This document shows positions 1 to 64,000 of a stretch of 64,000 nucleotides of DNA, one piece after another. The stretch is from a virus (lineage: Duplodnaviria > Caudoviricetes). Both the position numbers and the translations under genes were made by a program. The stretch is taken from positions 128,001-192,000 of the IMG/VR virus record IMGVR_UViG_3300033069_001378; one strand, 5' to 3'. Below the pieces are notes generated by a model that saw only the letters and a list, made by a program, of their open reading frames with translations, was not told where the DNA came from and did not search any database. Each line of letters starts with the position of its first letter. Position 1 is the first letter of the stretch.

Positions 1-212
1 TCGCCAGAAACGTGAGATCCATTCAAGTAGCTGAAAAGAACGCCAGGATAGACGTTAAATGAAATCATCCTCCAATCGGGATCCTTGGATCGAAATTCAC
101 CAAGAAACTCGGAATGCCTCAAAATGAAATTGTTATGGAATCCGCGCTTAAGCGAACCATACACAAAAACGAAATGATAACCGTTGTTGGTGCCATTCGA
201 CGAATCTGACAT
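1..212 (-). CDS. gamma-glutamylcyclotransferase (GGCT/AIG2-like) protein, 5' part; runs off window edge
   Basis: Not in ORF track; hand translation from ATG at 212 gives MSDSSNGTNNGYHFVFVYGSLKRGFHNNFIL...YPGV...HVSG, with the FVYGSL..G..N signature of GGCT/AIG2 proteins. Confidence 0.85.
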   Translation of the reverse strand, partial: MSDSSNGTNNGYHFVFVYGSLKRGFHNNFILRHSEFLGEFRSKDPDWRMISFNVYPGVLFSYLNGSHVSG

Positions 213-216
213 TGTT

Positions 217-360
217 TCAGACCAATTCCTTGAAAAACTTGACTGCCTTGGCAGTACCAATTACAACCAAAAAGACGAGTGCCGCACCAATTTGAACCGG
301 CAAAAATGCCAGCGTTCGAACGGGGTGCGACTTGAGGCGGGTGAGAACCTTGTTTGTCAT
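217..360 (-). CDS. small 47-aa putative membrane protein
   Basis: Hand translation MTNKVLTRLKSHPVRTLAFLPVQIGAALVFLVVIGTAKAVKFFKELV; one hydrophobic stretch; directly downstream of a promoter-like motif, 4 nt before the GGCT start. Confidence 0.55.
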   Translation of the reverse strand: MTNKVLTRLKSHPVRTLAFLPVQIGAALVFLVVIGTAKAVKFFKELV

Positions 361-369
361 TGTATGTAT

Positions 370-398
370 ACAATAACATAGATTACACACAATGTAAA
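370..398 (-). promoter_or_regulatory. sigma70-like early promoter
   Basis: Minus strand gTTTACA-N17-TATTGT with TG extension, preceded by AATTTTCC as in the promoter at 3490-3518. Confidence 0.55.
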
Positions 399-414
399 CA
401 GCTATTTTGGAAAA

Positions 415-1050
415 TTATCCCTTGTTTTTTACAAGGAAAAACGACGATCCACCAAGTCCAAGCTCTTCCGCGTAAATCTTGGCAAGCTGCGTACGTGCTG
501 CGCGAGCATAAACTCCAGGCTCCGCAATTTCGTGAAACGAAAATGGACGTGAACCGATGCGAGAGAAGAATTGAGAGAAGTCTCCTGCGATGCTTCCCTG
601 TACGACTTCCTCTCCCTTGCCTGGATAAGCGTTCTCGCAATCGGAAGTGCCTACAAGAGTAACATCACTACCGCCTCGGTTAGAGAAGAGAATGCTATCT
701 TGCTCAAAAGCTCCACCAAGCGCAACGAGGTCTTCCTTGAGATTTCCCGAATCTTGAAGATCAACAACAAAGAAACTCTCTTCGCCAACTTCCTTGGCAG
801 TATCGGAACCATAGTCTTCAACGTATGAACCCTTAACCTTTGTGACTCCGTAACCCTTTGTTCGTAGGATTGCGTAAAGCTTTCTGTTTAGCGCACCCTT
901 CTCCTCGCGAGTGTATGGAGTACCCTGATTGCAATCCCTGGCAGAACGCCATGCGGTAATGAAACCGCAATCATGCTTTGCCAAGTGTTCGTGGATACGA
1001 GAGATTGAAGATTCTTGAAGAGAAGTTTTGTCGATTACTAGTACGTTCAT
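415..1050 (-). CDS. conserved phage hypothetical protein (FITAW motif, possibly DUF3293-like)
   Basis: 211 aa; ESSISRI...GFITAWRS...EESFFV...FEQDSILF pattern recalled from large myophage proteins; TATTTA motif 5 nt upstream of ATG. Confidence 0.6.
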   Translation of the reverse strand: MNVLVIDKTSLQESSISRIHEHLAKHDCGFITAWRSARDCNQGTPYTREEKGALNRKLYAILRTKGYGVTKVKGSYVEDYGSDTAKEVGEESFFVVDLQDSGNLKEDLVALGGAFEQDSILFSNRGGSDVTLVGTSDCENAYPGKGEEVVQGSIAGDFSQFFSRIGSRPFSFHEIAEPGVYARAARTQLAKIYAEELGLGGSSFFLVKNKG

Positions 1051-1082
1051 ATGGGTAAATACTCTTTCAGGCAGGATTTTTC

Positions 1083-1979
1083 CTAATCCTTCTTGGAGTT
1101 AAAAAGAACCAAGCTTCGATTTCCTCCAACCGACTTCTTGGTGAGGACAGTCTTACCGTCCTTATTCTTCTTCTTCTTGTTGTTGTTCTTCTGAACCTTC
1201 TTGCCCTGATTCCGGGGAACCAACAGAAGAGCCTCATCCTTTGGTGAAAGCTCTACATCAAGAATGTTCTTGCCACGGGGCGAGTGCGAATCGTTATTGT
1301 TGTTCTTGCGATACGCATAACCCTTGTCGAGCAGCAGCGTGTCATTGAGCTTCTTGATAAGAGGATTCTTCTCTTCCTTCTCAGCCTTGCTCACCGCACG
1401 AGCCTGAATCTCACGATAACCAGGCTTAAGCGAGTAAGTGTTGCTGTACCAGAGAGCGCCATTCTCCCAACCGGCAGCCTTGTTCACGAGAGCGATCTTG
1501 CCATCGCCGCGAAGGAAAACCATCTTGTTGATCTGACCAACGCGATTTGCCATCCGAGTAAGCTGATTCTTGTCGAAAAGACTATCGGCACCGTAGACAC
1601 GAAGGGAACCCCGAAGGTGCTTCGCAAACTTAACCGAATCCGACTCCTCTTCATCGGACTTGAGGAACATGAACGTTCCATTGTGCATCATAAAGAGATC
1701 GTGTCCATCAGCCTTGTGAGAAAGAACACGGTGGGGATGGCAGTTGTTCTCGTTGATAGGTCCGCGAGTCCGATACCGAAAATGAATCACGTAGGGAACA
1801 CCATCAAACTTGCCAAGCAGATCAATGATCTCGTCTGCATCGAGGATATCGCGATAGGTCTGGACGCGACCATCCTGTGCCCACATGATCCCAAACCCAT
1901 GCGGGTTGTTCTCGTGAGCAATCCGAATATGATGCTCAGGAACCTTGGATCCGTCCGAGTTATAGATGATTAGACACAT
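1083..1979 (-). CDS. class II (Ntn) glutamine amidotransferase with basic low-complexity C-terminal tail
   Basis: N-terminal MC nucleophile, NPHGFG, HFRYRTRG, NCHP, MMHNG, SDS motifs; last ~110 aa Lys/Asn-rich. Confidence 0.9.
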   Translation of the reverse strand: MCLIIYNSDGSKVPEHHIRIAHENNPHGFGIMWAQDGRVQTYRDILDADEIIDLLGKFDGVPYVIHFRYRTRGPINENNCHPHRVLSHKADGHDLFMMHNGTFMFLKSDEEESDSVKFAKHLRGSLRVYGADSLFDKNQLTRMANRVGQINKMVFLRGDGKIALVNKAAGWENGALWYSNTYSLKPGYREIQARAVSKAEKEEKNPLIKKLNDTLLLDKGYAYRKNNNNDSHSPRGKNILDVELSPKDEALLLVPRNQGKKVQKNNNKKKKNKDGKTVLTKKSVGGNRSLVLFNSKKD

Positions 1980-2029
1980 TTGATGTTTTCTCTTTTTTGA
2001 AATTTGAGAGGCTTGTATTGTCTATATTA

Positions 2030-2308
2030 TCAGTTAAGCTGCGAAATGTAAACAATACCAAGGGAAATCAGGTCGTTTGCAAAGTCGTTCGCGCTATCAC
2101 TTCGAACCGAAGCCCCAAACATGATATAGGCTCGCTTTGCAAAGTCTGCCATGTAGGCATCATCGCTCTCACGCGGGAAAAAGCTCGTATTGCGAAGCTT
2201 TGTCACGAAATCCGAATGGCTTGAAGCGACAATCGTGCAACCATCCAGAAGCTTGTAAGTATTGGCAGTCATTTCTTTCCTCTTGCTTCCTGTTAGGGCT
2301 ATTGCCAA
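2030..2308 (-). CDS. hypothetical protein, amidoligase-operon accessory
   Basis: ORF packed 2 nt after the amidoligase stop; true start may be the second Met (MTANTYKLL). Confidence 0.6.
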   Translation of the reverse strand: MAIALTGSKRKEMTANTYKLLDGCTIVASSHSDFVTKLRNTSFFPRESDDAYMADFAKRAYIMFGASVRSDSANDFANDLISLGIVYISQLN

Positions 2309-2310
2309 TC

Positions 2311-3459: not shown

Positions 3460-3489
3460 GGGTTCTCCGTGTGTCTCGATTCTTTATAT

Positions 3490-3518
3490 AGACTACCACG
3501 GAAAACCAAAAGAGTAAA
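3490..3518 (-). promoter_or_regulatory. sigma70-like early promoter of amidoligase operon
   Basis: Minus strand gTTTACT-N17-TAGTCT with TGG extended -10 and A-rich upstream element; resembles T4 early GTTTAC promoters. Confidence 0.65.
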
Positions 3519-3537
3519 CTGATTATGGAAAATTTTT

Positions 3538-4098: not shown

Positions 4099-4109
4099 GA
4101 GGTTTACCT

Positions 4110-4150
4110 CTTTGACAAGAGAGTCCAGTTGGGCTCTTCAAAGATAAGTA
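4110..4150 (-). promoter_or_regulatory. RBS-overlapping hairpin preceded by TACTTA motif
   Basis: Minus strand CTTTGAAGAGCCCA...TGGACTCTCTTGTCAAAG stem whose 3' arm runs into the AGAGG SD; TACTTA at 4145-4150. Confidence 0.45.
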
Positions 4151-4175
4151 GACCATCATTATAGATATTATTGTC

Positions 4176-4325: not shown

Positions 4326-4345
4326 GTTTTTTGTTTTCTGTTTTT

Positions 4346-4858: not shown

Positions 4859-4886
4859 ATATTACCACCTATTTCTAAAATGTAAA
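4859..4886 (-). promoter_or_regulatory. sigma70-like promoter, likely leaderless transcript for the deaminase
   Basis: gTTTACA-N16-TAATAT with TGG extension; ATG at 4852 lies 7 nt past the -10; the -35 is one arm of inverted repeat TGTAAAC-N10-GTTTACA. Confidence 0.5.
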
Positions 4887-4913
4887 CCAAAAAATCAGTT
4901 TACACAAAAATGG

Positions 4914-6716
4914 CTATCTTAGTACCCAATCCCATTCAGCGTTCGGGTTAATGTAGGGTTGTTGATTGGGTCTTGATTGTTGCTGTTGTGGCAAACCCAT
5001 TTCTTTTCTCAATTCGGAAAAGGCATCGGTCTGTACTGTAGCTGGAACTTTTGAAACTGTTGGGAGAAGTCCGGGAGCACCTGTTACTCTGTTCTGCTGT
5101 TGAGCAAAGTTATTGCCAACAAAGACAGGCATAGGCATATCGAGATTCTTTACCTCTTGAGAAACTCCGTATCCACCGTAACCATTGGAGGTAAGTGATA
5201 CGTTATTTCTTGCAAAGCTAAGCAGCATGGCTCTCGAATACTCGTCTTGTGAATATTGAGTTTGTCCAGAAACCTCAAACAATGAGACACCTATAGCTAG
5301 TGCCATTACCAAATCGTCATGGTAATTCTTCATTGCTTCGGCTCTATTGCCTTTCCAAATGAATACCTTGAACTCTTCTAGGATTCTCTTCGAGTTGATT
5401 CTAAGCTGACCATTCTTCAAAACGGTGTCAAGCTTTGCAAGCATCTCGTCTCTGTTCTTTGGACCAGTATAGATACCTGGCATATCTTGTGGTCTGATCT
5501 CTTGTTGTGTCATGTAAGCAGAGTAGATATTTTTGAACTTTTCATAAAAGAGGTTTGGATAGTTTGCATCTTTTATTGATTTTGCGACAATCAAACCATA
5601 AGAGTTCTGTTCTGGACAGAGCATTGCGAAATTGTATTCCTGACCAACCTTCATTAGTAGGTCTGCAAGGTGATCCGAAGGAATCTTGTTGCTTTGGAAC
5701 TCTCCAATAACAGAATCATTGGTTATGTTGATGATATGAAACGTTGAGTAATCCTTACCAGCACCAGAAGAAACGTCAGCAGCAATAACATACTTGCTGT
5801 CTGGTTCAGGCTTTTCCCAAATCCAAAGGTCTTCATGTAGAGGATGGATATACAAAGGATCTCTAACGGTCGAAGCAAGTAGATCCATTGTTGTGTTTGA
5901 AAGGAAGGTGTCACCGGATCCAAGAAAGGAACATAGAAGTTCTTGCTGGATTGCTCGTTCCGTTCCTAGTTCAGCGCACTGTTGCTCATACCATTTCTGA
6001 TCTCTTTCAGGTTGAACAGTCCAAGGAAGCTCGACGGGCTTGAAGCCGTTGTCTCCTTTTAATGCTCTTGTCCATAGAGAATGGAAAAGATTACCGACGC
6101 CGTTTGGAGTAGAGATAAGGATAGCACTTCCACCTGTAGAAAGGGTTGGTTGGAGAGCAAGCCAAAGCTCGTCGATGCCTTCAACGTGGGCAGCTTCGTC
6201 AACGATAAGGAGTGAGATAGCTTCACCACGTCCTGCGTCCGAGCTTGTTGGTACGGCTTTGATTGACGAACCGTTGTCAAACTTTATGTCTCTTACGGAG
6301 TGTGCCGTAATCTTTGGCATGATGAGCCAGTTTGGAATGCTTTTAAGCATTGCGTCAACCTTTCGAATGAAAAGCTTCGCAACTTCTAGCTTGGTAGCGA
6401 CAACAAGAATGTTCTTTTGTGGCTGGAAGATTGCCATCCAAATCGAGTAAGCAGCGGAGACTGTAGAAAGTCCTAGCTGTCTCGACTTGTTAACGATTAC
6501 GAATCTGTTTTGTTTAAAGCATTCTACACAGTCATCCTGATATTCAAAAGTCTTGAATGGGATGAGTCCCTTAACAGGGTGAGGAATCTTTACGTAAGTC
6601 TTAATGAAGTACGCAGGGTCTTTTCCGCAACGTATGATTTCTTTAACTTGATATTCTCTAGGAGGAATGCCCTTCATAGAGGTTTGAATATGTTCACTTT
6701 TGCTTGGTCTTGCCAT
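4914..6716 (-). CDS. terL: terminase large subunit, T4 gp17-like
   Basis: YQ adenine motif, Walker A KSRQLGLST, Walker B LIVDEAAH, ISTPNG, nuclease ADVSSGAGKDYS and HDDLVMALA. Confidence 0.95.
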   Translation of the reverse strand: MARPSKSEHIQTSMKGIPPREYQVKEIIRCGKDPAYFIKTYVKIPHPVKGLIPFKTFEYQDDCVECFKQNRFVIVNKSRQLGLSTVSAAYSIWMAIFQPQKNILVVATKLEVAKLFIRKVDAMLKSIPNWLIMPKITAHSVRDIKFDNGSSIKAVPTSSDAGRGEAISLLIVDEAAHVEGIDELWLALQPTLSTGGSAILISTPNGVGNLFHSLWTRALKGDNGFKPVELPWTVQPERDQKWYEQQCAELGTERAIQQELLCSFLGSGDTFLSNTTMDLLASTVRDPLYIHPLHEDLWIWEKPEPDSKYVIAADVSSGAGKDYSTFHIINITNDSVIGEFQSNKIPSDHLADLLMKVGQEYNFAMLCPEQNSYGLIVAKSIKDANYPNLFYEKFKNIYSAYMTQQEIRPQDMPGIYTGPKNRDEMLAKLDTVLKNGQLRINSKRILEEFKVFIWKGNRAEAMKNYHDDLVMALAIGVSLFEVSGQTQYSQDEYSRAMLLSFARNNVSLTSNGYGGYGVSQEVKNLDMPMPVFVGNNFAQQQNRVTGAPGLLPTVSKVPATVQTDAFSELRKEMGLPQQQQSRPNQQPYINPNAEWDWVLR

Positions 6717-7239
6717 CGGGCTTCTTCTGATCTATCAACTTCTTGTTGTGCTTGACTTGTTTGTCAACATTGTCTTGCACAGTCTTTTCCATCTTCTCGA
6801 AGTAATCCTCAACATCATCGCCACCTGTTACTTCAATGAGGGCAGTTACTCTTAACATTCCTGATTGAGTTGGTCTAAAAACCGAGTAAGAAGTGAATTC
6901 TACGTTGTCAACAACGGAGTTTTCGTTGATTGTTAGTGTTATTGACTTATCGAACTGCTCTTTGTATTCTCTTGCAAAGTTCTCTGTACCGCGTTTGATT
7001 GATGAAAGTGCGTCAGAGACAAGCTTACCCATTAGAGTTGAAAGCATTGATTTTGAAGGGACTGCAATAGCGCCTTGGTAATGAGCTTTTATCGTTCTTT
7101 CGTTGATTAACTCAAAACGAAGATGTTGTGTGGTTGTACCAGTATATCCAGAGCCGCCAGGTCCGTTAGAACCAAGGGTTGAGTTTGCAATTCTAGATAG
7201 TCTGTTGAACTTCTTAAGGTCTTTGATCAATCCTGACAT
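6694..7239 (-). CDS. hypothetical protein
   Basis: 181-aa ORF with GAGG SD, overlapping terL start; TACTTA motif 30 nt upstream. Confidence 0.7.
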   Translation of the reverse strand: MSGLIKDLKKFNRLSRIANSTLGSNGPGGSGYTGTTTQHLRFELINERTIKAHYQGAIAVPSKSMLSTLMGKLVSDALSSIKRGTENFAREYKEQFDKSITLTINENSVVDNVEFTSYSVFRPTQSGMLRVTALIEVTGGDDVEDYFEKMEKTVQDNVDKQVKHNKKLIDQKKPDGKTKQK

Positions 7240-7258
7240 ATTGGTATTTCCTCGTGTA

Positions 7259-7555
7259 TTACTTGAAAATAAGTATGGGTCTTGATTGCAATTCCCTATT
7301 TTTTATGTACTCATCCCATAACTCGGGAAAAACTACAGAAGGATGCTTCTCTTTTACTTGCCAGTCAACTTCAAGAACATAAGACCAGTTAATGTCACAC
7401 TTAGAGCAACAACCTTTTGATCTATATGAAATTGAATCATCGATTGTTTTCATTGGCTGTTGACATTCTTTACAAAACAATGGGACTTGTTGCTGTCTGA
7501 CTTCTTCATCAAACACAACAATCACCTTACCATTATTTTTGGATTCTATTGCCAT
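7259..7555 (-). CDS. small putative zinc-finger protein
   Basis: CKEC...CSKC pairs, 98 aa. Confidence 0.6.
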   Translation of the reverse strand: MAIESKNNGKVIVVFDEEVRQQQVPLFCKECQQPMKTIDDSISYRSKGCCSKCDINWSYVLEVDWQVKEKHPSVVFPELWDEYIKNRELQSRPILIFK

Positions 7556-7575
7556 AGTGACAATAGACTAACAGA

Positions 7576-8082
7576 TTACCACCAATATGGATTCTTTGTT
7601 GAACGCTTCCAAACAGCAAATCTAGCTTTGTCCATCTTGTAGTAGTTGCGATAGGACTGCACAGGATCGCCGGGGACCAAACATAAATTATGCTTTGCAG
7701 GATCTTTGGCATAGAATGCCATGGCAAAGCCAGTCATGTTGTCGGCTTGTATGTTTGGAACATGCTCAGAGAGCCATTTCAGATGAGGAGCACAAGCATG
7801 AATCTTACGATACCTTGCCGTGTATTCTTCTGAAATAGCTATTCCGTGTTTGACAAGCCACTTATAGTTTGCCTTTGAATCTCTTGCCCATTTGGAACAA
7901 GGATGATTGGCATGAGTTGGCTTATATGGCACAAGTTTCTTTGGTCCAGTTGGTTGCCCACCTGTTGCCCAATGAGCGGTATACAACATTTGAGTTGTTT
8001 CTACTGCCATTTTAGAAATGTGCTTATCGCATAAGAACTGCGCTGCTCTTTTTGGATTTGTGTCTAAAACGAAAATATTCAT
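7576..8082 (-). CDS. pyrimidine dimer DNA glycosylase/endonuclease V-like family protein
   Basis: MNIFVLD..P..AAQ.LCDKH..KM.VE..QML and YKPTH.NHPC..W.R.S..NY.WL family motifs. Confidence 0.75.
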   Translation of the reverse strand: MNIFVLDTNPKRAAQFLCDKHISKMAVETTQMLYTAHWATGGQPTGPKKLVPYKPTHANHPCSKWARDSKANYKWLVKHGIAISEEYTARYRKIHACAPHLKWLSEHVPNIQADNMTGFAMAFYAKDPAKHNLCLVPGDPVQSYRNYYKMDKARFAVWKRSTKNPYWW

Positions 8083-9268: not shown

Positions 9269-12200
9269 TTAAGCCTCGATTTTGGATTCTACGCCGTCGT
9301 TCTTGACTTCCAAGATTCGATCAGCAACTTCTTTTATAGCAGGTTCATGAGAGATAATCAACACAGACTTAAAATAAGTCCTTAACATGTTGAGCATTTC
9401 GAGACAAGCTTGCATGTTCTCTTCATCCAGAGCGGTGAATCCTTCATCAACAATGAATATATCGGAACGTGGAATCGATGACACATTGATCAGTGCGACT
9501 CTGATTGCAAGACTTGCGATGGTCTTCTCCATGCCAGAGCCAAGCTCTACGACACGACGAGAATGCATATCCTCTAGGTAGACGTCCATAGCATTTGAAG
9601 CTAGGTCGTTTTCCAAAACAATCTTGAAGTCAGTAACTCCCATGAGTATCTTCTCAAGCTCAGAGTTGATTGAAGGCAATTGAGTCTTTAGGATCATTGC
9701 AGGAATACCTGTTTTTGAAAAGGACTCTTGGATTGAAGACAAGACTGTGAAGTTCTCGTGAAGCTCCTTAAGCATATCCCTGTTTGCCTTAACGGTTTCA
9801 AGGTTGGTTTGATAACTTCCAAGTGACTTATAGAGGTCTGCAAGAGTCTTATCGAACTCTTTTATCTCTACTTCCATTCCTTCAACAAGCTTTTTGTTTG
9901 CAAGGTGTGTTTCGTCGCTGTCATAACTTGAATCTGCCTTCAACGACTTTGTGATTTCTTCAATCTCATTGACGATTTGAATTCTGTAGGCATTCTTGAA
10001 ATCATACTCGTTCCTCTTTGAAGCAAGAGAAGTCTTTGTTGAATTCACTGTTTCTTGAAGGCGATCCCTTTGCTTTATGCTTCTGTTGAAGTTTTCTATT
10101 TGCTCTTCAAGCTTTAGAGAAGCAAGTTCAGACATATCTGAAAGGATTGATACTTGCTCGTCAAGGAGCTGACGAAGATGGTTGTTTTGTTCGACTAACT
10201 TCTTCTTGTCCTCGTGAGAATCTCGAATAAAGTAGCAATCAGGAAACTGCTCGCCGCATGGTACGAGGTCAAGCTTCTTAACAGACTTGTCAAGATGGGC
10301 TTTTGTGTTCTGTTCAACATGAATCTCGGACTTTATGTGATTGCTCTTGGTCTTCTTATCGTTAAGAATGGCAAGTTTCTCATTAAGACCAACAAGATCA
10401 ACCAATCCAATAGCTGTTTCAAGAGAAACCATTTGTTGTTCTTGAGTCTCAAGCTTTCCAACAAGCAGATCAATGTCCTTCTTGATAGTTAACAGATCAT
10501 CATCCACAACAGACAAAGCTTTCTTCTTTGAAGAAAGGCTGTTTTGAATCATGAACCTGTCTTTGTTCTTGTTCTCGTATGAGAGGACCAAATCCTTTAG
10601 GTCTGTATGAGCAGACTGCTTCTTTGACTTCAACTGATTGGTGTTATCGATTTGGTAATCAACTCTATCGATTTCCTTGGAGATTTCGATTTCCTTCTTA
10701 TCCAAGTCTTCAATGGTTAGACCTTTTGTCTTGGCATTCAAGTTTACAACGTCATTTTTTACAAACGTGTATAGCTTTTCAAACAAGTCAATATCCAAGA
10801 ACCTGTTGAGGATCTTCTTTCTGTTGGTCGAGCCCTCGTTGATGAATCTCATGATATCACCCTGGGATGCAAGACTTGTCATCAGGAAATCTTCTGGAGT
10901 TCCGATTAGCTTTCGGATTTCCTTGTCTGTGTCATCGCGAGAAATGCTATTTCTCTCTATTTTGGTGATCTTTCCGTCTGCCTTGTACTTCACCTCAAAC
11001 AAGTTTACCTTTGTGGCACTCTTGGAAGGATCCTTTTGATTGGTTCTGGTTGTTTCACGCTCAATGATATAGTCAGTACCATCATGGCTAATGCAAATCT
11101 TTGCCCAACAGTTGTTCTTTCGCTTATTGATGATATCGCTTGCTTTGATAGAACCACGGTCAGTTGTGTTGAACAAAGCATACATGGTTGCAGCGATGAC
11201 GCTGCTCTTTCCAATTTTGTTCTTTCCAAACAAGCCGATGAGTCCAGTTTGCTTCTCAAAGTCAATCTTGTTGTTGTCTCCGTAGCGGAATAGGTTTCCG
11301 AACTCAAGCCACTTGACTGTCCACTGTTGATTTCCGATAACACCACCGTCGTATTGAACGGAGTTGTTGTACTGCTCAAGATAGGTCTTTATTTGCTCAT
11401 GAGCCTTTTGCTTCTGCTCTGCTGAGAGAAGAATTTGATTCTGACTTAGCATGAAGTCGTCGAAGAGCTTTACAATGGCATCGGAATCGTTTCTAAGGTT
11501 CTTTTTGGATGCCTTTGAACGTTCGATTTCCATGAAATCGTTATTCACGTCCTTTTCGTGCTTGAAAACAACTTCTTGAACTCCATAGTTGGTTCTAAGA
11601 ATGTTCACCAACGCTTCTGTGTGAGCTTGTGGAAGAACCTCTCTTGTAACGAACCTAAAGCGAGAGCCAGGAAGGATTGTTCCGTTTGGAACAACGTCTA
11701 GAACGTTTTGGATTGTGTCTTTTACGTTATTGACCCAACCGAGTGTGTAGAACGGTTGAAGATTGTCAAGCTCATGGAACTCAACGTCCCAATCATCCTT
11801 GGCACGAATATCCCAAACGTAGAAGCCTTTGGTGATTGACTCACCGAAGTTCTGTTGGATCAAAGAGCCAGGATAGCCCATGTAAGGCTTGAATGCACCT
11901 GTCTTATCTCTACGACGATCCATGAATTGCTGTTGATGAATATCTCCAAGCAATACGAAGTCGAAGATGTTCATATCCGAAACATCAATCTCTCCGTGTG
12001 GCCAGACCATTCCGTTGTCCATGACACAACCAGATACGGAGCCGTGAAACAATGCGATGTTGATCTTGTCTGGATCTGGAACCATGTTCTTCCAGCCATC
12101 TTTGTCGAATGGCGAGAAGCAATGAAACTTTACAGAAGGACGGAGTTTTTTGACGGCACTATCGTATGTTGTAATATCGTATGTTACCGAATTCCTGGAA

Positions 12201-12550
12201 AAATAAGTATTTTTACCAAATCCTGCTGTGTCTTCTTCATAAATTTGCTTCTCTAGGATTGTAGAGATGATATCCTTACGAGAAAGGTTGGTAAGATTGC
12301 CGTCGTGGTTTCCAAGAATCGTAATATTGTTACCAGCCAACTTTGACAACTGGTCAAACATCCAAGTCATGCGCTCAACAATCTCTGGTGAGATCGATTG
12401 TGTCTTGGTATGAAAGATATCGCCTGTGTTTACGATAACGTCAGGCTTGATTTCTTTTATCTTCTTGAAGAGGAGTTCAAAGGCATTTGTGTACTCTTCA
12501 TGCCTTGACAAGCCGCGCCAGTGAATGTCACTGATATGTACTATTTTCAT
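9269..12550 (-). CDS. fused Mre11/SbcD nuclease - Rad50/SbcC ATPase (T4 gp47-gp46-like)
   Basis: Phosphoesterase motifs SDIH, GDIFH, GNHD, FHG, GDIH, YPGS; Walker A GKNKIGKSS, Q-loop SQG, coiled coil, signature GSGME, Walker B IVDEGF, ISHE. Confidence 0.93.
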   Translation of the reverse strand: MKIVHISDIHWRGLSRHEEYTNAFELLFKKIKEIKPDVIVNTGDIFHTKTQSISPEIVERMTWMFDQLSKLAGNNITILGNHDGNLTNLSRKDIISTILEKQIYEEDTAGFGKNTYFSRNSVTYDITTYDSAVKKLRPSVKFHCFSPFDKDGWKNMVPDPDKINIALFHGSVSGCVMDNGMVWPHGEIDVSDMNIFDFVLLGDIHQQQFMDRRRDKTGAFKPYMGYPGSLIQQNFGESITKGFYVWDIRAKDDWDVEFHELDNLQPFYTLGWVNNVKDTIQNVLDVVPNGTILPGSRFRFVTREVLPQAHTEALVNILRTNYGVQEVVFKHEKDVNNDFMEIERSKASKKNLRNDSDAIVKLFDDFMLSQNQILLSAEQKQKAHEQIKTYLEQYNNSVQYDGGVIGNQQWTVKWLEFGNLFRYGDNNKIDFEKQTGLIGLFGKNKIGKSSVIAATMYALFNTTDRGSIKASDIINKRKNNCWAKICISHDGTDYIIERETTRTNQKDPSKSATKVNLFEVKYKADGKITKIERNSISRDDTDKEIRKLIGTPEDFLMTSLASQGDIMRFINEGSTNRKKILNRFLDIDLFEKLYTFVKNDVVNLNAKTKGLTIEDLDKKEIEISKEIDRVDYQIDNTNQLKSKKQSAHTDLKDLVLSYENKNKDRFMIQNSLSSKKKALSVVDDDLLTIKKDIDLLVGKLETQEQQMVSLETAIGLVDLVGLNEKLAILNDKKTKSNHIKSEIHVEQNTKAHLDKSVKKLDLVPCGEQFPDCYFIRDSHEDKKKLVEQNNHLRQLLDEQVSILSDMSELASLKLEEQIENFNRSIKQRDRLQETVNSTKTSLASKRNEYDFKNAYRIQIVNEIEEITKSLKADSSYDSDETHLANKKLVEGMEVEIKEFDKTLADLYKSLGSYQTNLETVKANRDMLKELHENFTVLSSIQESFSKTGIPAMILKTQLPSINSELEKILMGVTDFKIVLENDLASNAMDVYLEDMHSRRVVELGSGMEKTIASLAIRVALINVSSIPRSDIFIVDEGFTALDEENMQACLEMLNMLRTYFKSVLIISHEPAIKEVADRILEVKNDGVESKIEA

Positions 12551-34424: not shown

Positions 34425-37400
34425 TCAGTAGCGGTTAACAATGCCTGTGATTAGTTGTAATAGAATTGTTGCCTTCAAGCCATTTCTATTTGTGTCTCCA
34501 AGGTAAATATCATCAGAATGGTATTGTACTTTTGGTCTAGACAATACGTTGTTTTCAACAATGAAGTTGGTTCCAGCGAATTTTGTCTTGTAAGGTAGCA
34601 ACTGGGAAACGAATGTTCCAATGTTTGTGTCAAACCACTTATAGAACTCAAAGAAGCCTTTGAGGTTAACCTTGTCAGTTAGTTTGTTGAAGTAGTTTTT
34701 CTTTATGACTTCAAGGTCCATGTATTGTGGAGCATAGAGAAGTTCTGGTGAACCAAGAGCGTTGTCAAACTCTTCCAACGAAGATAGAATGGTTATGATA
34801 TCCTGATTCAAGAAGTCCATGATTGAGAAGTCGATGGTGAACTTTGTGCTGTCAAATGGCTTCTCTGAGGGAGGGAGTTCATACATAGGAGCCGCTCCAG
34901 CCCAAGGCTCTGCATTCAAAAGATTGTCATACTCTTGGTATGAGCGAACTCTTACCTTTTCAACGGTGCTACCTTCGTCGAATCTTGGAGATAGGTACGA
35001 ATAATAAACTTGATGTGGAGAGAATACAATAGAGCTTGTTGCTGGAAACAAACTTCCTGTGAAGCTTATGTTGTTCTGTGAGAAGTCTGTTAGGAACAAA
35101 CCTCCATCAGCAGTAGTTGTCTCATTAACTTGGTCAACTTGAATTTCCATTCTAAGTCTATTCCATGAGCCTGTAGTAACGGTGTCAAAGTTCCAGTTTG
35201 TCTTTGGATCATTGACGCCAACAGAATGATAGTTTCTTACATGCTCTTGCCATTCGGTATTGTTTAGATTCTTTGACCAAAAACGAATTTGACTTAACTT
35301 TCCATCAAAGTCTGTGACTCTCAAGGAGTCAGGAACAACAACGGAATCGTTTAGGAAGACGCTTAGAGCACTTGTTTGAATTGATTGAGAACCGACGGTA
35401 AGATATGGGGCACTAGAAGTGACTGGAGCGAAATTCGCAACGTCAAATTGGTCTAGATTATAGAACTGCTCTATTTCATACCATGAAGAGGTGGAATATG
35501 ATTCATAGATTTCTCCATTGACATTCTTCGCTGCACGAAGGAAGAAAGAAGATGACGCAACAGAATTCAACTGGGCATATTCATCGTCATGCCTTACCTT
35601 GCCAACAGAGATGTACCAAGGATCTCCATTGGTCATATCAATCGACGGGATTGACATTCTTAGTGGTTGTGAATTTCCGGTAAAATCTGATCTATAGGCA
35701 AACTCAAGCTTTCTATCTTCATAGTTGTAAATCAAGTTTCCAAAAAACAACTGATCAACACCACCGCCAAGGCTTGTTGATGCAAACATTCTCATGAGAC
35801 TTTGTGATAAGACTTGAGAATATGGATTAAGCCTGTAAAGACCTTCATATGTCCATGAGCCAGAAGTCATCAATGAGTCGTTGGACGTGCCATCAGAGTA
35901 TGGCCAGCCTGGCTCAACCTTTGAGCAGCTTAGAGGCTTGCTCTCAATGAACCCACCGGAGATAAAGTCAACCATTGTCAAAACGTCAGAACGCTTGTCT
36001 CTTACCCATGTAAGGTTTCTGCTTGTTGGTCCACCATATTCTCTTATTCTGAAGTTGTTGTCTGGATCGATACCAACGGAGCGAAGATATGCCTTCACAG
36101 AATGGATGGTACCCTTGGAACGAAGAACGTCTTGCATGTTGATCAAAATTCTTCTCCAGATTTGGCTTTGAACGTTCTTCAAAGTCTCTGATGAAGTGCT
36201 GATGTTGCCTTCAATGTTTTCACCATCAAAATACTGTTCAAGAGAAGCATCTTGGAACAAGTAAGGAAGCTCAATGCCGGATTGTCTTGCGATATTCTGC
36301 AAGAATTCGTTTGGCGTGTTGTTCTTTGGATCGTAATCGACCCAATTCAAGTTTGAGAACTCTTGAATGTAGAGTTTTAGTTCATCGAAGTATTTTGCCC
36401 ATGTATACATGAGTAGAAGCATGGCTTGGGTTGCTCCAAGCTTTGCACTTCTTGGATCTGTGCCTGATTGAAGCATATCCACAATGCTCCCACCCTCTGT
36501 ATTCAGAATGTCGTCTTCAACGTTCTGAATGAGGTAATGTTTTGGAATTAATCTGGTGATTAGATTTGGATTTTGTTCGTCGAACTCAGCAGACTGGCTT
36601 ACAAGCGTTGTTCTTAGAGTTGTGGTATCATCATAGTCAGGAAATAGAACAGGATTGAGGAAAGACCTCTCGTAAGTCATTGGAGAAGTTCCGGCTATGG
36701 AAGCTGTTGAAATGTTTCTAACACCAAGGAGATATCCTGTAGATGATAGTCTTCCGTGAACAGAGTTGCTTGAGTAATCAACAACAACGTCTGAGTTGAT
36801 GTTTGCTGGTTCGTTGAAACGGTAGTAAAGCTTTAGATGGCTATCGGCAAATACATTCTTTGCTGCATATTGCTGGAGATCAGACGCACTTCTTGGCTCA
36901 TTCCAGATTCTAAGTTCGTCAATGGCTCCAGAGAAGGTTGTGTTTGGAGTGAAGAGAGTTCCAAGGTTTGAACCAGAGCCAATAAGCAAATCGGTTGTGT
37001 CACAAGAGAGATATCCAAATTCCTTTGTTGAAAGGGTTTGGTTTACAAGCTGTTCGTTGAGATATCCGTAAATCTTGCCAACGCCAGGAGTTCTATCCCA
37101 TACGAAAGCAACGTGATTCCATTGACCTTTCAAAATAGGCATTGTAAGGCTATCCACAAGGGTTCCAGACACTAGATAGAAGCCAAGATTGGCTCCAGAG
37201 CTTCCACCGTCAGATTCCAAACTAACGTAGTAACCAACATCGTTCAAATGCTTATCTATAACCGCTGTAGAGTCGTTTGCTTGAGCAGGGACATAGACTT
37301 GCATCTCAATGGTTAGAGAGTCGTCACCGGGATTTAGAATCGATTGACCGCTCTTATTGGAAGACATTCCAGGATACGCAGAACCAGCAATGTCCTTAAC

Positions 37401-37832
37401 GGAAACATAGGTTCCACCATAACCCTCAGAAGCCTGAGTTCCTGAGAAGAAGAGATAGCCTTTGTTCTTTGGGAAATTATCATAAACATACTTTTCAAAA
37501 CCTGTAAGTTGGTCAAGGAATATGTTTGTGTCCTTTTGAGATCCGTTAAATGGGAAATCATTAAGGATTCTATCAAAGGCTACGTTTGTTTTTACCTGGG
37601 CAGAGTTGAAGAATGTGTGTTGAGAGAAGTCAGACCAGTCAATGTTCAACTGTTGAGTTGACAACAACCCAGATCCCTCTGGGTTTGTTCTGAAAGAGCT
37701 TGTGCTGTCAAAGTCATAGCTCTTCAATGCATCTGCATCGACCTTTTTGACATAGTTTGGCGCAAACAAACGCAATGAGTTTGCTTGGGACGTGCTATAA
37801 CCATTTTTTCCGAATATTGTCATGCTACTCAA
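34425..37832 (-). CDS. baseplate-associated virion protein with LamG domains
   Basis: LTIEMQVY, GQWNHVAFVW, FSGAIDELRIWN, LKLYYRFNE; second FDGKLSQIRFW; central SKGT...LRSVGI wedge-like motif. Confidence 0.75.
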   Translation of the reverse strand: MSSMTIFGKNGYSTSQANSLRLFAPNYVKKVDADALKSYDFDSTSSFRTNPEGSGLLSTQQLNIDWSDFSQHTFFNSAQVKTNVAFDRILNDFPFNGSQKDTNIFLDQLTGFEKYVYDNFPKNKGYLFFSGTQASEGYGGTYVSVKDIAGSAYPGMSSNKSGQSILNPGDDSLTIEMQVYVPAQANDSTAVIDKHLNDVGYYVSLESDGGSSGANLGFYLVSGTLVDSLTMPILKGQWNHVAFVWDRTPGVGKIYGYLNEQLVNQTLSTKEFGYLSCDTTDLLIGSGSNLGTLFTPNTTFSGAIDELRIWNEPRSASDLQQYAAKNVFADSHLKLYYRFNEPANINSDVVVDYSSNSVHGRLSSTGYLLGVRNISTASIAGTSPMTYERSFLNPVLFPDYDDTTTLRTTLVSQSAEFDEQNPNLITRLIPKHYLIQNVEDDILNTEGGSIVDMLQSGTDPRSAKLGATQAMLLLMYTWAKYFDELKLYIQEFSNLNWVDYDPKNNTPNEFLQNIARQSGIELPYLFQDASLEQYFDGENIEGNISTSSETLKNVQSQIWRRILINMQDVLRSKGTIHSVKAYLRSVGIDPDNNFRIREYGGPTSRNLTWVRDKRSDVLTMVDFISGGFIESKPLSCSKVEPGWPYSDGTSNDSLMTSGSWTYEGLYRLNPYSQVLSQSLMRMFASTSLGGGVDQLFFGNLIYNYEDRKLEFAYRSDFTGNSQPLRMSIPSIDMTNGDPWYISVGKVRHDDEYAQLNSVASSSFFLRAAKNVNGEIYESYSTSSWYEIEQFYNLDQFDVANFAPVTSSAPYLTVGSQSIQTSALSVFLNDSVVVPDSLRVTDFDGKLSQIRFWSKNLNNTEWQEHVRNYHSVGVNDPKTNWNFDTVTTGSWNRLRMEIQVDQVNETTTADGGLFLTDFSQNNISFTGSLFPATSSIVFSPHQVYYSYLSPRFDEGSTVEKVRVRSYQEYDNLLNAEPWAGAAPMYELPPSEKPFDSTKFTIDFSIMDFLNQDIITILSSLEEFDNALGSPELLYAPQYMDLEVIKKNYFNKLTDKVNLKGFFEFYKWFDTNIGTFVSQLLPYKTKFAGTNFIVENNVLSRPKVQYHSDDIYLGDTNRNGLKATILLQLITGIVNRY

Positions 37833-39471
37833 CTACTTTGAATCTAAAACCAGGGTTCTCAATATAGGTATCTTTGCCAGTGGAATCTGAGCGTATTAGA
37901 AAGTCTATTTGATAAACAATGTTGACTTCTAAGTCCCCTGGCCAAATATCAAAGAACATTCCTTCGTGATCAAAAGATAGTCTTGTAGCGTCTTCGTGAT
38001 ATGGGATAACCTCGATGTTCTCGTAAGCTTTTCGAAGTCTCCAGTACATGTTTGGAATGATTACAGACTGTGATTGTGTATATGTCTTGTAAGCTTTCAT
38101 ATCTGCGTCATAATTCTGAACAAAGACTCTTAGCCTCACCTGATCGCCAGATTGATACTCTTGTCTTAGGTTCGTTATGTTGGCAACAATATTTCTGTCT
38201 GTAACGTTTGAGAAGGTTCCAAATCTGTATTCAAAAGTCTCGTAAAGAGCAGCATAAGTGATTGAACTATCGAGACTCTTCCATGAAACCTTGAACTCAT
38301 GACTTGATGCCCCAGACAAGAAAGCCTTGAGACTTGAAGTCATATCTGGGTCAATTACGAATGTTGACTTATAGATACCAGTCTGACTATTTTCACCAAT
38401 CACATGCTGCGATCCAATGAATGATGCTGTGAACACATCAAGTGATCTTGTTTTATGTGTGATTGAAGCACTGTGAGAGATACTCCAGCTTTGGGTGAAG
38501 TATTCAACGCTATGAGAAGCAGCAAGTTCCAAAGTCAAACAGTTTGCTCCAGAGACTACAGACGAACCAGAGGTAAAGTTAGCATAGTTTCCATAATCGT
38601 TCTTGTTGTAAATGTAGAATGTCTGTGGAGCAGAACTGAAATTGGACAAAGCTGTTTGATCTTCGATTCTTTCGCCAGAATATCTGATATGAAGCTTTGG
38701 CTTTAGGTCATCGTTGTAAGCGTGACGAGTTCCAAAACGCTTAACGAAGTACGTTGTGTCTGAGTTTTCTTCTTGAGCTGTGTATGAGACTCTAAATCCG
38801 TTGTTAGGCAAAATACCAGCTACGGAAGCAGAAACAAGTTGGGTAATGTCTACCCAAAGGTCTTCATCTCCTCTTCTGAAGAACTGAGAGGTTTTGAGGG
38901 ATTGATTTCCAGAGCCAATATTTCCAGAAACCCAAACGTCTACATCTGTACCATCCGTTAAAGAACCAGAAGCATTTGCTCCTTCAAGTGACCAAGTTAC
39001 ATAGGTAGAGTTGACGACAGAGGCAGTTAGGAAATTGCAAACGTCGAGTTGTCTGTATGAAATAACATCAGAGCCTCTTCCTTCATTCCAGTCTTTTGCC
39101 AATGGAATGATTTCAACTGTGTAGTTTGAAGGAACGGTCTGACCACCGTAAATATCTTTCATCGACATGTAAGCTTTGAAAGAAGAATCATTCATGTCGA
39201 GGACGCTTGAAGTTAAAGAAGTAAGTTGCGAATAATCAAATTTGATGAGCAATCTAGAGACTTCTCTTACAGGATCATAGGTTCCTGTATTGTAAATCAT
39301 AACTCCACTTACAATTGAGCCAGTATTTGAAGTTGGAACGTAAGTTTCAGCATATAGACTGTAAAGATCAAGGGTTCCCGCTTGTCCTGTATTTGCGTCA
39401 GTGCAACGGACTCCTTTGATGTACTTGTTTTGAATGTAAGCGTCTTGAGACGCAGATAGTAGACGATACAT
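37825..39471 (-). CDS. virion protein with DNRLRE-like N-terminal domain
   Basis: ASQDAYI...NTG...L...SRLLIKFD, W.EG.G, VDITQLV, KPKL.I pattern. Confidence 0.6.
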   Translation of the reverse strand: MYRLLSASQDAYIQNKYIKGVRCTDANTGQAGTLDLYSLYAETYVPTSNTGSIVSGVMIYNTGTYDPVREVSRLLIKFDYSQLTSLTSSVLDMNDSSFKAYMSMKDIYGGQTVPSNYTVEIIPLAKDWNEGRGSDVISYRQLDVCNFLTASVVNSTYVTWSLEGANASGSLTDGTDVDVWVSGNIGSGNQSLKTSQFFRRGDEDLWVDITQLVSASVAGILPNNGFRVSYTAQEENSDTTYFVKRFGTRHAYNDDLKPKLHIRYSGERIEDQTALSNFSSAPQTFYIYNKNDYGNYANFTSGSSVVSGANCLTLELAASHSVEYFTQSWSISHSASITHKTRSLDVFTASFIGSQHVIGENSQTGIYKSTFVIDPDMTSSLKAFLSGASSHEFKVSWKSLDSSITYAALYETFEYRFGTFSNVTDRNIVANITNLRQEYQSGDQVRLRVFVQNYDADMKAYKTYTQSQSVIIPNMYWRLRKAYENIEVIPYHEDATRLSFDHEGMFFDIWPGDLEVNIVYQIDFLIRSDSTGKDTYIENPGFRFKVVE

Positions 39472-55197: not shown

Positions 55198-55878
55198 TCA
55201 TGCCTTCTTCTTTTTGATTAGGACCAAGAAATAGTGCGCCATTGTTCTAACAACATGTGAGAACGGATATGCTTGTACGTTATAGGAAGAAAGAATATGC
55301 TCTTTCCAAAACTGCTCTGGAAAGACAGACTGATGCAAATGAATGATTCCGCCATCTGGAAGCTCTCTGTAGTCTGGTCCTGTGTTGATACTTCCGATGA
55401 AGACTCCATCCTCTGCAAGATTATCGAATACGTACGAGAAGAATGTGTGAATCTCTGTTGGATGAATGTGCTCGATGACTTCCCAGGCACTAATCACATC
55501 GAACAAAACCTTTTCTCCATTCTTTTCAACGTGATATGGCTTTGTCAAATCTGCTGTATGAAGAACTGTCTTGTGATATTCTGGCCAGTTATGAAGTCCT
55601 CTCTTGATTGAGTGATCCGAGCCTTCAAGACCAATTGAGAAATGACCTCTCTTGGCAAAGTCAACGGCAAGCTGTCCACCAGCACAACCAATGTCCATAT
55701 AGTTGAACTTTTCCTTGCCCATGTTGTCAAGAACGTACTTCTCAACTTCGGCAAGATAGCCATCAGATGAATGGTTGTCGTTAATTGTACCAACAGGACA
55801 AATGTGATCGGGAGATTGTTCAGCTACAGTAGCTTGTGCTACGATTTCTACGTTTTCGTATTTCTCTTTGTCAAACAT
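55198..55878 (-). CDS. class I SAM-dependent methyltransferase
   Basis: MDIGCAGG, FDVISAWEVIEHI. Confidence 0.85.
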   Translation of the reverse strand: MFDKEKYENVEIVAQATVAEQSPDHICPVGTINDNHSSDGYLAEVEKYVLDNMGKEKFNYMDIGCAGGQLAVDFAKRGHFSIGLEGSDHSIKRGLHNWPEYHKTVLHTADLTKPYHVEKNGEKVLFDVISAWEVIEHIHPTEIHTFFSYVFDNLAEDGVFIGSINTGPDYRELPDGGIIHLHQSVFPEQFWKEHILSSYNVQAYPFSHVVRTMAHYFLVLIKKKKA

Positions 55879-61537: not shown

Positions 61538-61540
61538 GTG

Positions 61541-62200
61541 TCACTTCTTTCTAAGATAGAGAGCATCGCCCCAACCGTACTCCGTTGGGCAGGTTGCAGC
61601 AGGATGAAATCCATAATTTCCCAACAGTACGTTCAAGAATGGCATAGTCTTGGCTCCTTTGTAAACCTCTTCGAAGTTTACTTCGGTGTAGACTGCATCA
61701 ATTCTAAAGTCTCTGTTGTGGTGAGAAAGTAAATCTCCAAATCCTTGAAGGACTTCAAACTCTACACCCTGCACATCTAGATTCACAAAAACACTTCTGC
61801 CTTCTAGCTTGTATTGATTTGGCTCTTCTTTGATTAGCGAATCAAATCTTCTTGTTGTCACTTTGATTGTTTCTGTAACAGAGATTTGAGGATAATGTTT
61901 CTTGTGCGTTCCCATTTCCAAAAGAGAGCTTGATTGACCGTTGTTGGTTATCTTGAACTCAATCTCTTTGCCATCAACGTTGAACAAAGCTGCGCATTCA
62001 AAATCATCAAGTGCTCTGTACTTCTCTACGTTCTCAACAAGAGGCTTAATCAAATTTGGATTTGCTTCATACCAGAATGTCTTTTTAACGCCATATTTTG
62101 CGTAATCTTGAGCTTCTTCTCCAAGATGGGCTCCGATATGAATTACGTAGTCAAAAGAATGTCCAGCAATCTCTAAGCATTTCGAGTAAGGTATCAACAT
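61541..62200 (-). CDS. FkbM-family methyltransferase
   Basis: HIGAHLGEE, YEANP, SSSLL, NLDVQGVE, YTEVN, WGDALY; start at MLIPY. Confidence 0.88.
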   Translation of the reverse strand: MLIPYSKCLEIAGHSFDYVIHIGAHLGEEAQDYAKYGVKKTFWYEANPNLIKPLVENVEKYRALDDFECAALFNVDGKEIEFKITNNGQSSSLLEMGTHKKHYPQISVTETIKVTTRRFDSLIKEEPNQYKLEGRSVFVNLDVQGVEFEVLQGFGDLLSHHNRDFRIDAVYTEVNFEEVYKGAKTMPFLNVLLGNYGFHPAATCPTEYGWGDALYLRKK

Positions 62201-62213
62201 TGTTTTCGGTCTT

Positions 62214-62927
62214 TCAGTTTTTGACGAGGAGTTCGTTTTTGATGAATAATAGATTTTCCCAGTTGTCAACAGACACAACGTCAGAAGCGGTCTTCACTAT
62301 ATTTCCAGGAGCTACGTCACCGTAGAAGATTGAGTATCCAAAGCTATCGAAGAACTTAACGAAGTCATCAATAGAGATACCTGCATCTTTGAATGTGTCA
62401 CCAATCTCAAACTGTCCAGCATTCACGATGCCAGATTGAAAAGTGTTGACGGCTCCTTTTAATGCTTCAAGTTCATGACCTTCAACGTCAATTTTCAAGT
62501 AGTTGATTTGGGTTATGTTGTTTTTGGAAACATAAGAGTCGATCGAAATCAAACTTACTTCAACGGGCACAGGCTGGTCCTCTGGTTTGAACCCTTCATA
62601 TGCCTTTCGATTGTATAAGCTCGCTATGGCAGAGCCGACACTACCTGGGTCATAGAGGTCCATCTTGTGTTCGGACGAGCTTACGCCTACGTTGTTGAGC
62701 GTTACGTTAGGTTGTGTTCCGTATCTCTCGTTGAGTCTTTCAAAGGCTTTTGGATTTGGCTCAAACGAGTGAACAACAAAGTTTGCCTGAACCATCGAGT
62801 TGAGAAGCTCAATGTAGTCTCCTATGTTGGAGCCGACGTCAAATATCACAAAAGGAGACGACTTGTCTGTTTTATGGGTTATGTATTTTACTGCCCTATG
62901 AAGGCATAGATTGTCTTGAGTTATCAT
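62214..62927 (-). CDS. FkbM-family methyltransferase
   Basis: FDVGSNIG, SFEPNP, LKIDVEGHELEALKG, QFE; start at MITQD. Confidence 0.9.
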   Translation of the reverse strand: MITQDNLCLHRAVKYITHKTDKSSPFVIFDVGSNIGDYIELLNSMVQANFVVHSFEPNPKAFERLNERYGTQPNVTLNNVGVSSSEHKMDLYDPGSVGSAIASLYNRKAYEGFKPEDQPVPVEVSLISIDSYVSKNNITQINYLKIDVEGHELEALKGAVNTFQSGIVNAGQFEIGDTFKDAGISIDDFVKFFDSFGYSIFYGDVAPGNIVKTASDVVSVDNWENLLFIKNELLVKN

Positions 62928-63685
62928 AAACCTCTTAGCCAAGCATCATTCGTGCTTGAATTTCTACGATAGCAGTATAGTGGCAACTTGACTGCGGAGG
63001 TCTTTTGCAAAAGCAAAGTGAACTTCGTATTGAGATCAGAATCCTCTGCTCGTTGTATCCTTAGATTCATATCGGGTGGAACATATCTCATCCCGTCTTG
63101 CCATTTTGATGTTTCAAACATGCAAGCTCCACCATGGACTTCATATTCAGGAGAAGCAACATAATGCCCAATTCCGGGAACAGATCTGGAGTTACGACAA
63201 GAATCATAGGTATGCTTATGGTCCAAAAGCAAACTTCCCAAATTCGATAAATCATACGTTTCATTATAGTGGCTCTCCATATCCTCATCTGTGTGACAGT
63301 GATAAAATCCAACAAGATTGTGGCAGCTTCCTAGTAACTGCATTGCTTTGACCTGCACCTCAATCTTTTGAGACAAGGCTACGTCGTCAGCATCATGAAT
63401 CATAACAAGAGGAGAAGAGACTTTGGAAATGGCTTCATTCAAAACTGCCCACTTTCCCTTGTTCTTGTCGTTCAGGATTGTTGTTATGGACTCATCTTCC
63501 CAACAGATTTCACTTAAGACCTCTTTGGTATATGGATCGGTTGAACCATCATCAATCAAGATGATTTCGAAATTCGAATAAGTCTGTCTTTTGATTGACT
63601 CAATGGACTTCTTCAAATACTTTCCATGGTTGTAGTTCGTTATGATAACGGAAACTTTTGGATCATCACTTGACATATTCATCAA
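62924..63685 (-). CDS. GT-A glycosyltransferase (GT2)
   Basis: VSVIITNYN, IDDGSTD, HDADD, AEDSD, LYCYR. Confidence 0.9.
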   Translation of the reverse strand: MMNMSSDDPKVSVIITNYNHGKYLKKSIESIKRQTYSNFEIILIDDGSTDPYTKEVLSEICWEDESITTILNDKNKGKWAVLNEAISKVSSPLVMIHDADDVALSQKIEVQVKAMQLLGSCHNLVGFYHCHTDEDMESHYNETYDLSNLGSLLLDHKHTYDSCRNSRSVPGIGHYVASPEYEVHGGACMFETSKWQDGMRYVPPDMNLRIQRAEDSDLNTKFTLLLQKTSAVKLPLYCYRRNSSTNDAWLRGL

Positions 63686-64000
63686 ACACTTTCTTTGGAA
63701 TTATGAAATGAGCAGCGTTAACAACAACGTTTTCTCTAATCATTTTGATGAGTTCACTTGTTGACATTTTGGTTCCTCTTAACAAAGCTTCATTCAATTC
63801 TTCTGGAGAGTAGGTGTTTTCGTGCTTGTTTTGGATAACGCCTTGAACTCTGTTGCATGGAAAGTTGAACAATCTTGAAGCCTCGGGATAGCAAGTCAAA
63901 ACCTGTGGGACGGTTCCAGAGAACTTTCTCATTTGGGCAAAATCGTTAAGAGCACCTTCAAGAGTGTTTGGATGCGTGAACTTTTCATCAGGTATCTTTG
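63666..64000 (-). CDS. hypothetical protein, 3' part (start outside window), possibly glycosyltransferase-like
   Basis: Frame stays open to the window edge: KIPDEKFTHPNTLEGAL...NFPCNRVQ...ELNEALL. Confidence 0.55.
   Translation of the reverse strand, partial: KIPDEKFTHPNTLEGALNDFAQMRKFSGTVPQVLTCYPEASRLFNFPCNRVQGVIQNKHENTYSPEELNEALLRGTKMSTSELIKMIRENVVVNAAHFIIPKKVFDEYVK

Follow-up and report, generated by a model that had tools for sequence, protein, structure and literature searches.

The window analyzed here is the whole 64,000-nucleotide stretch spanning bases 128,001-192,000 of G000, a 252,526-bp virus contig (estimated completeness 66%) from an uncultured T4-like jumbo phage whose terminase is at most 38% identical to those of cultured relatives. 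We examined the loss of the tetranucleotide GGCC from this DNA together with a phage-encoded nuclease and methylase that appear to form a candidate GGCC restriction-modification (R-M) pair. GGCC was found in the window at exactly four positions (12000, 35902, 37940, and 55583), as a prior sequence-only reading had noted, and each copy lies within a TGGCCA that encodes an in-frame Trp-Pro pair on the minus strand (VWPH, GWPY, IWPG, and NWPE, respectively). These pairs were located in: (i) an SbcCD/Mre11-Rad50-like gene at 9269-12550 (TGGCCA at 11999-12004; Trp183-Pro184, MVWPHG); (ii) the gene of a LamG-domain protein at 34425-37832 (35901-35906; Trp643-Pro644, PGWPYS), in which relatives carry Tyr-Pro; (iii) a 548-amino-acid gene at 37825-39471 (37939-37944; Trp510-Pro511, DIWPGD), whose relatives do not conserve the pair; and (iv) the gene of an S-adenosylmethionine (SAM)-dependent methyltransferase at 55198-55878 in the glycan island (55582-55587; Trp98-Pro99, HNWPEY).

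Based on a maximal-order Markov model, 85.2 copies of GGCC are expected in the window (about 100 had been estimated beforehand), and the four observed correspond to a z-score of -10.8, the lowest among all 256 4-mers. When the whole contig was examined, GGCC was detected 9 times, compared with 305 expected by the Markov model or 291 ± 13 by synonymous-codon shuffle. All nine copies are in-frame TGG-CCA codons for Trp-Pro and account for every Trp-Pro pair of the called proteome. Coding frames in which GGCC is avoidable had no copies (GGC/C, 0 versus 143; nnG/GCC, 0 versus 118; and non-Trp nGG/CC, 0 versus 18), noncoding DNA was equally empty (0 versus 29), and 0 of approximately 280 avoidable sites thus survived in the contig. 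The amidoligase gene was also devoid of GGCC at a GC content of 58%, in agreement with the earlier observation. The two findings that had been named as able to overturn the earlier claim, many unforced sites or an explanation by codon usage, were both absent, as unforced GGCC numbered 0 and the codon shuffle still predicts 291 sites. A forced site in this sense is one without synonymous escape only; the residue itself can differ in homologues, and several of the phage Trp-Pro pairs were found to be Tyr-Pro, Phe-Pro, or other residues there. With 6,496 positions of the contig one substitution short of GGCC, new copies must be weeded out continually. The purge extended to sister phages that are about 70% identical in nucleotide sequence, with the sole site in L260 and L261 being a Trp-Pro of the terminase. 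An immunity of the hexamer TGGCCA itself was considered and rejected, as unforced TGGCCA was detected at 0 of approximately 55 expected sites. The CCA codon is used at 9 of 9 surviving sites and represents 57% of the Pro codons (0.57^9, about 0.006); a flank preference of one enzyme at the surviving TGGCCA is a possible, unproven, reason. Sixteen tRNA calls were made in the contig, including tRNA-Pro(UGG), which decodes the CCA of the nine surviving sites.

The Trp-Pro pair was the rarest of the 400 dipeptides in the proteome (9 versus 29.5, a ratio of 0.31; Poisson P of about 0.003; Fisher P = 0.02 for WP:PW). At seven well-aligned sites with Trp-Pro in a relative, the phage retained the pair at 0 of 7 versus 36% (P = 0.04). 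Trp-Pro was also low in relatives that do not avoid GGCC (pooled ratio of about 0.72, with one at 0.37), and with P-values of 0.003-0.04 we did not accept that the Trp-Pro purge proves selection at the amino acid level; a thinning of this kind is suggestive only. A literature search, incomplete in its coverage, found no paper on Trp-Pro-forced sites. At terminase residues Q189-P190 (window 6147-6152, minus strand), where Trp is the commonest residue at the Q189 position among 83 homologues, the closest relatives encode Trp-Pro as TGG-CCA, which is their only or main GGCC, and the phage encodes Gln-Pro.

The elimination was not limited to GGCC. Using the criterion of Rusinov et al. (observed/expected <0.1 at an expectation >15), 36 REBASE entries (Biopython list) were found to be eliminated in the contig, 30 of which are independent after removal of nested entries, GGCC included. 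The approximately 29 sites other than GGCC are 6-11 bp in length (e.g., observed/expected of 0/100 for GGTCTC, 0/66 for CAGCTG, 0/54 for GCAGTG, 0/49 for CTGCAG, 0/47 for CAGN3CTG, 0/44 for CCCAGC, 3/140 for GACATC, and 2/70 for CCAN5TGG). Three sites proposed for counting by the sequence-only reading were all depleted (CTGCAG, 0; GTCGAC, 0; GAGCTC, 8 versus 41-47 genome-wide). Depletion was strong yet incomplete for GACATG/CATGTC (9 versus 100 in coding DNA) and, genome-wide, for GAGCTC, TGTACA, CTCGAG, and GGCG, words which may report older, newer, or weaker pressures. In the same contig, GAATTC, AAGCTT, GATATC, GGATCC, and GATC were not eliminated, and no Type I bipartite motif was depleted. 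Seven relatives had only 1-10 eliminated entries each. Elimination of Type II sites is typical of nontemperate double-stranded DNA phages and is directed at orthodox Type II systems (Rusinov et al. 2018, PMC6286503); with about 30 independent Type II sites gone, host restriction pressure on the phage is real. G000:14852-15313 encodes a second Dam, of phage type (PF05869), and 121330-121911 a partial methylase resembling D12; these may explain why GATC-containing sites were not eliminated. Among the other phages, G001 (L202-L204) eliminates a different set (CGCG, 0/85; TTCGAA, CAGCTG, and CTGCAG), G002 (L211-L221 and L250-L254) eliminates AGGCCT, CTGCAG, CAGCTG, GAGCTC, and CTCGAG, and the sister phage L260/L261 (ENA ERZ4198739, SRR12487039) has most eliminated sites in common but not CAGCTG, GCATGC, and TGTACA. 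This sister phage also shares with G000 a 3.5-kb block at 92% identity, compared with about 70% elsewhere, which suggests recent exchange.

Approximately 110 kb upstream of the window, an unannotated 305-amino-acid open reading frame (ORF) on the plus strand, P0241 (G000:16005-16922; L004:16005-16922), is predicted to encode a PD-(D/E)xK nuclease with an intact core and an MspI/HinP1I-like fold. Its AlphaFold2 model had a predicted local distance difference test (pLDDT) score of 92, and the best folds among 48,161 PDB chains were HinP1I (Z 6.1, root mean square deviation 4.5, 195 residues aligned) and MspI (Z 5.8, 5.2, and 187, respectively). P0241 resembles both enzymes in its PD-x(13)-S-x-K core and N-terminal Glu, and the catalytic-type residues E12, P102, D104, S118, and K120 were invariant in 88 homologues; it differs in being only 8-11% identical to them, which together with a Z-score of about 6 leaves its specificity unreadable from the fold. 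The top ESM Atlas clusters were RE_HaeIII (0.97; 10 of 10 of one family, 217 of 256 features), which is evidence of the works-like kind only, and an ESM Atlas structure row matched a cluster with 20% RE_HaeIII members (template modeling scores of 0.69/0.84). P0241 works like the RE_HaeIII family but is not filed in it. From these predictions we infer a monomeric GGCC four-base cutter; the GGCC enzyme BspRI has also been suggested to be a monomer (PMC2978348). In total, 915 homologues of the nuclease were found, and none was detected in 50,697 GenBank phage records.

The candidate partner of P0241 is a D12-annotated methylase of M.CbeI type on the minus strand at G000:19170-20012 (L005:1171-2013), 2.2 kb downstream of the nuclease gene and convergent with it. 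Its best PDB match was 7M6B (E-value 4 × 10^-53, versus 8 × 10^-11 for DpnM), which is M.CbeI (PMC8616854), an enzyme annotated as D12 that places N4-methylcytosine (m4C) on GGCC as the partner of the HaeIII isoschizomer CbeI (PMC3425538). The best plasmid matches (40-42%) included Nostoc methylases directly adjoining HaeIII-family restriction endonucleases (REases), and the motif NRxxFSG..SGG (NRITFSG..SGGYS in the phage) was common to the phage and Nostoc enzymes and missing from the Dam types. A single-sequence fold of the methylase was of no use (pLDDT 33), and no C5 or PF01555 methylase was found in the contig. From these similarities, GGCC in the phage DNA probably carries m4C. The window itself encodes a SAM lyase family protein (PF23780, E-value 1 × 10^-10) at 415-1050 on the minus strand, within the amidoligase/GGACT cluster and syntenic in four related loci. 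By analogy with the SAM-destroying gene of phage T3, the lyase may protect against SAM-dependent systems and is a candidate counter-defense against Type I, Type III, and BREX systems; it would also deprive the phage's own methylase of SAM.

The nuclease gene is preceded by TATTTA at G000:15661 and TAYTTA at 15815. TAYTTA (TACTTA/TATTTA) was the most enriched motif upstream of the contig's genes, with related words depleted inside genes, and probably represents a late promoter, not a restriction site; the nuclease would accordingly be expected late in infection. Upstream of the nuclease, a 101-amino-acid leader ORF on the plus strand (G000:15703-16008) overlaps the nuclease start by ATGA; the homologue P0245 has a related leader (E-value 2 × 10^-7) that is fused to its nuclease. 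In 72 of 76 leader-bearing homologues, the last residues of the N-terminal leader, immediately ahead of the conserved start, are [ILVM]xE, compared with 5% in controls. We take this ending to be the T4 gp21-type cleavage motif, as in T4 capsid-targeting leaders, and other genes of the nuclease operon also had leader-like N termini. The leader of G000 is separate from the nuclease, with no in-frame extension, so packaging into the virion is uncertain and would need a -1 frameshift or a noncovalent route; the junction may possibly represent such a frameshift or a split gene.

The co-occurrence of nuclease, methylase, and GGCC loss was examined in other viruses. Among 80 viral loci with the nuclease family, the picture was mixed, with a GGCC ratio <0.2 in 43 and ≥0.4 in 35. 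P0241 was placed in a six-member subclade (SH-aLRT support of 96 in a quick tree), all six of which lie in GGCC-poor DNA (observed/expected of 9/305, 3/34, 0/146, 4/23, 0/19, and 12/48). An M.CbeI-type methylase adjoins the nuclease in five of these six, the sixth being a 25%-complete fragment. When related loci were selected by terminase instead, an observed/expected ratio ≤0.26 was detected in 7 of 45. Among 4-bp palindromes, none was more depleted than GGCC in L392, L342, and L360. G002, the closest long relative, still contains 173 coding GGCC and lacks both the nuclease and the methylase. A C5 methylase had been predicted near the nonpurged carriers of the nuclease; this prediction failed, as none was found near any carrier.

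On balance, we favor the reading that GGCC was lost by restriction-site elimination under purifying selection, with the phage's own R-M pair as a main agent. The late-made nuclease would cut unmethylated GGCC in host or co-infecting competitor DNA (GGCC recurs every 110-140 bp or so in GC-rich bacterial DNA, with a spacing of 137 bp in sampled Polyangiaceae loci and 108 bp in Chloroflexi loci), and the phage would spare itself in two steps: (i) every avoidable GGCC is reworded; and (ii) the M.CbeI-type enzyme puts m4C on the remaining Trp-Pro sites. The SAM lyase may make this methylation unreliable and so favor elimination. The other 29 or so eliminated sites would be the mark of Type II systems in the host. 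Host enzymes that recognize GGCC may contribute as well, and selection by the phage nuclease and by the host can act together. Several findings weigh against this reading. The Pfam RE_HaeIII hidden Markov model (HMM; PF09556) matched neither P0241 nor 87 homologues, comparison with three Nostoc HaeIII-family REases gave an hhalign probability of 0.1 and no HMM match, and a fold Z-score of about 6 is intermediate. Of the 76 nuclease carriers outside the subclade, 35 showed no GGCC depletion, and the rows within the subclade are not fully independent. The fragments G005, G006, and G007 deplete or purge GGCC and are without such a nuclease, methylase-bearing cyanophage stretches are GGCC-poor (S-SSM5, 7/27; Syn9, 11/34) with no such nuclease in the whole S-SSM5 genome, and G515 (L308/L395-L397; 45 kb, 47% GC) lacks GATC (0/133) and CGCG (0/82) as well as GGCC (0/146). 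In a serious, though less probable, alternative, a HaeIII/BsuRI-like host enzyme alone drives the purge, the methylase serves anti-restriction, and the nuclease acts on a different target or is a passenger acquired along with the methylase. A host GGCC enzyme would select the purge and the carriage of a methylase alike, the eliminated Type II sites are too many for the phage to encode a cutter for each, Type II-site elimination is the usual finding in nontemperate phages (PMC6286503), and relatives and cyanophages purge or deplete GGCC without the nuclease in the DNA examined. However, this alternative does not itself predict that, in five of six members of a GGCC-poor subclade, a gene with an REase fold would be linked to a methylase of GGCC type. 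A search of 251 genomes from each candidate host phylum (Myxococcota and Chloroflexi) likewise returned no RE_HaeIII, a point that is weak as the controls were equally silent. The restriction selection that the sequence-only reading had proposed was supported; its attribution to a host system became doubtful once the phage was found to encode its own candidate pair.

Two further explanations were weighed beside selection by the phage's own pair. GGCC marked by a phage or host methylase could be attacked by methyl-directed Type IV or IIM (McrBC-like) enzymes in other hosts, consistent with the predicted GGCC methylase of the phage and with the GGCC-poor cyanophages that bear one; this we regard as improbable, since it would be costly to retain an enzyme that generates the attacked mark, Type IV site ratios are mostly about 1, and elimination is <0.5% for non-Type II systems (Rusinov et al., PMC6286503). 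Neutral composition, whether codon bias, codon-pair bias, or methyl-C decay, was refuted. Many palindromes and GGCG are mildly depleted, as such a bias might produce, but the synonymous shuffle restores hundreds of sites and the noncoding DNA is empty too. Furthermore, Gly GGC was detected 271-432 times before A, G, or T and 0 times before C, while GGC and GCC are common in other contexts. The deamination products GGTC and GACC were not in excess, and after G, Ala is mainly encoded by GCA; methyl-C decay is therefore not the cause. A more elaborate version of the favored reading, to be held only tentatively, is that of a lytic jumbo phage armed against host or competitor DNA with a late, possibly capsid-delivered GGCC enzyme from a viral family not described before; self-protection would have driven GGCC avoidance as far as the genetic code permits and thinned Trp-Pro, while a cognate m4C methylase covers the rest. 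A literature search of incomplete coverage returned no paper on lytic-phage REases that degrade host DNA.

Restriction-site avoidance is well known, with the Bacillus phages being the classic GGCC-poor case; the contribution of the present case lies in a full candidate GGCC pair with a link to a characterized methylase, in the subclade correlation, and in the unusual breadth of elimination. Similar to other avoidance of this kind (PMC6286503), orthodox Type II sites are eliminated and Type I bipartite motifs are not depleted. The differences lie in the breadth (30 independent sites versus 1-10 entries in seven relatives), in a purge that reaches the genetic-code limit, and in a GGCC enzyme that is likely phage-borne. 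Like M.CbeI of the Caldicellulosiruptor bescii CbeI/M.CbeI system and DmtB of Anabaena (PMC3425538; 7M6B), the phage methylase is a D12-annotated alpha-class enzyme with the common recognition motif near a restriction-fold nuclease. Unlike these systems, the genes are phage-borne, convergent, and 2.2 kb apart, with the nuclease after a late-promoter motif, and no sequence similarity could be detected between the nuclease and the annotated HaeIII-family REases compared with it. Virus-encoded R-M pairs also occur in chloroviruses, which are algal viruses and not bacteriophages, and which package the restriction enzymes CviAI/CviAII in the virion. T4 targets internal proteins to its capsid; the leaders of the nuclease homologues share the [ILVM]xE end, whereas that of G000 is a separate, overlapping ORF. 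Missing restriction words are usually read as a host fingerprint and may instead report an enzyme of the phage itself. Here, the GGCC gap coincides with a phage-borne candidate R-M pair that Pfam missed, and it would predict which sequence an unannotated family of viral nucleases recognizes.

As a clue to the host, for which the sequence-only reading had recommended it, GGCC was found to be poor, as numerous unrelated viruses have purged it; the roughly 30 eliminated sites would together be a precise constraint for host finding given methylomes of the source community. The same reading had argued from GGCC that the DNA is shielded neither by bulky modification nor by a nucleus-like shell. This cannot be derived from GGCC, which contains no A or T and is silent on modified A or T, yet it is reasonable from the eliminated sites that do contain these bases, along with the lack in a contig estimated as 66% complete of any match to tubulin (PF00091; chimallin was not searched for), thymidylate-synthase-type hydroxymethylase, or DpdA/tRNA-guanine transglycosylase. 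ThyX, dUTPase, ribonucleotide reductase, and dCMP deaminase were present. Neither the terminase nor GroEL (about 43% identical to everything) served as a host pointer. Microcystis was rejected, as its rare 6-mers do not include CTGCAG, GGTCTC, GCAGTG, GACATC, and CCCAGC. The named matches of the L,D-transpeptidase were to Myxococcota and Chloroflexi; no matching depletion was detected in pooled Myxococcota loci, and Chloroflexi loci were palindrome-poor, though not specifically so (P = 0.14). Shine-Dalgarno signals in the phage were weak. Host-like genes for GroEL, initiation factor IF-1, peptide deformylase, and an iron superoxide dismutase domain were located at G000:97994-99727, 103396-103698, 7142-7774, and 237101-238051, respectively.

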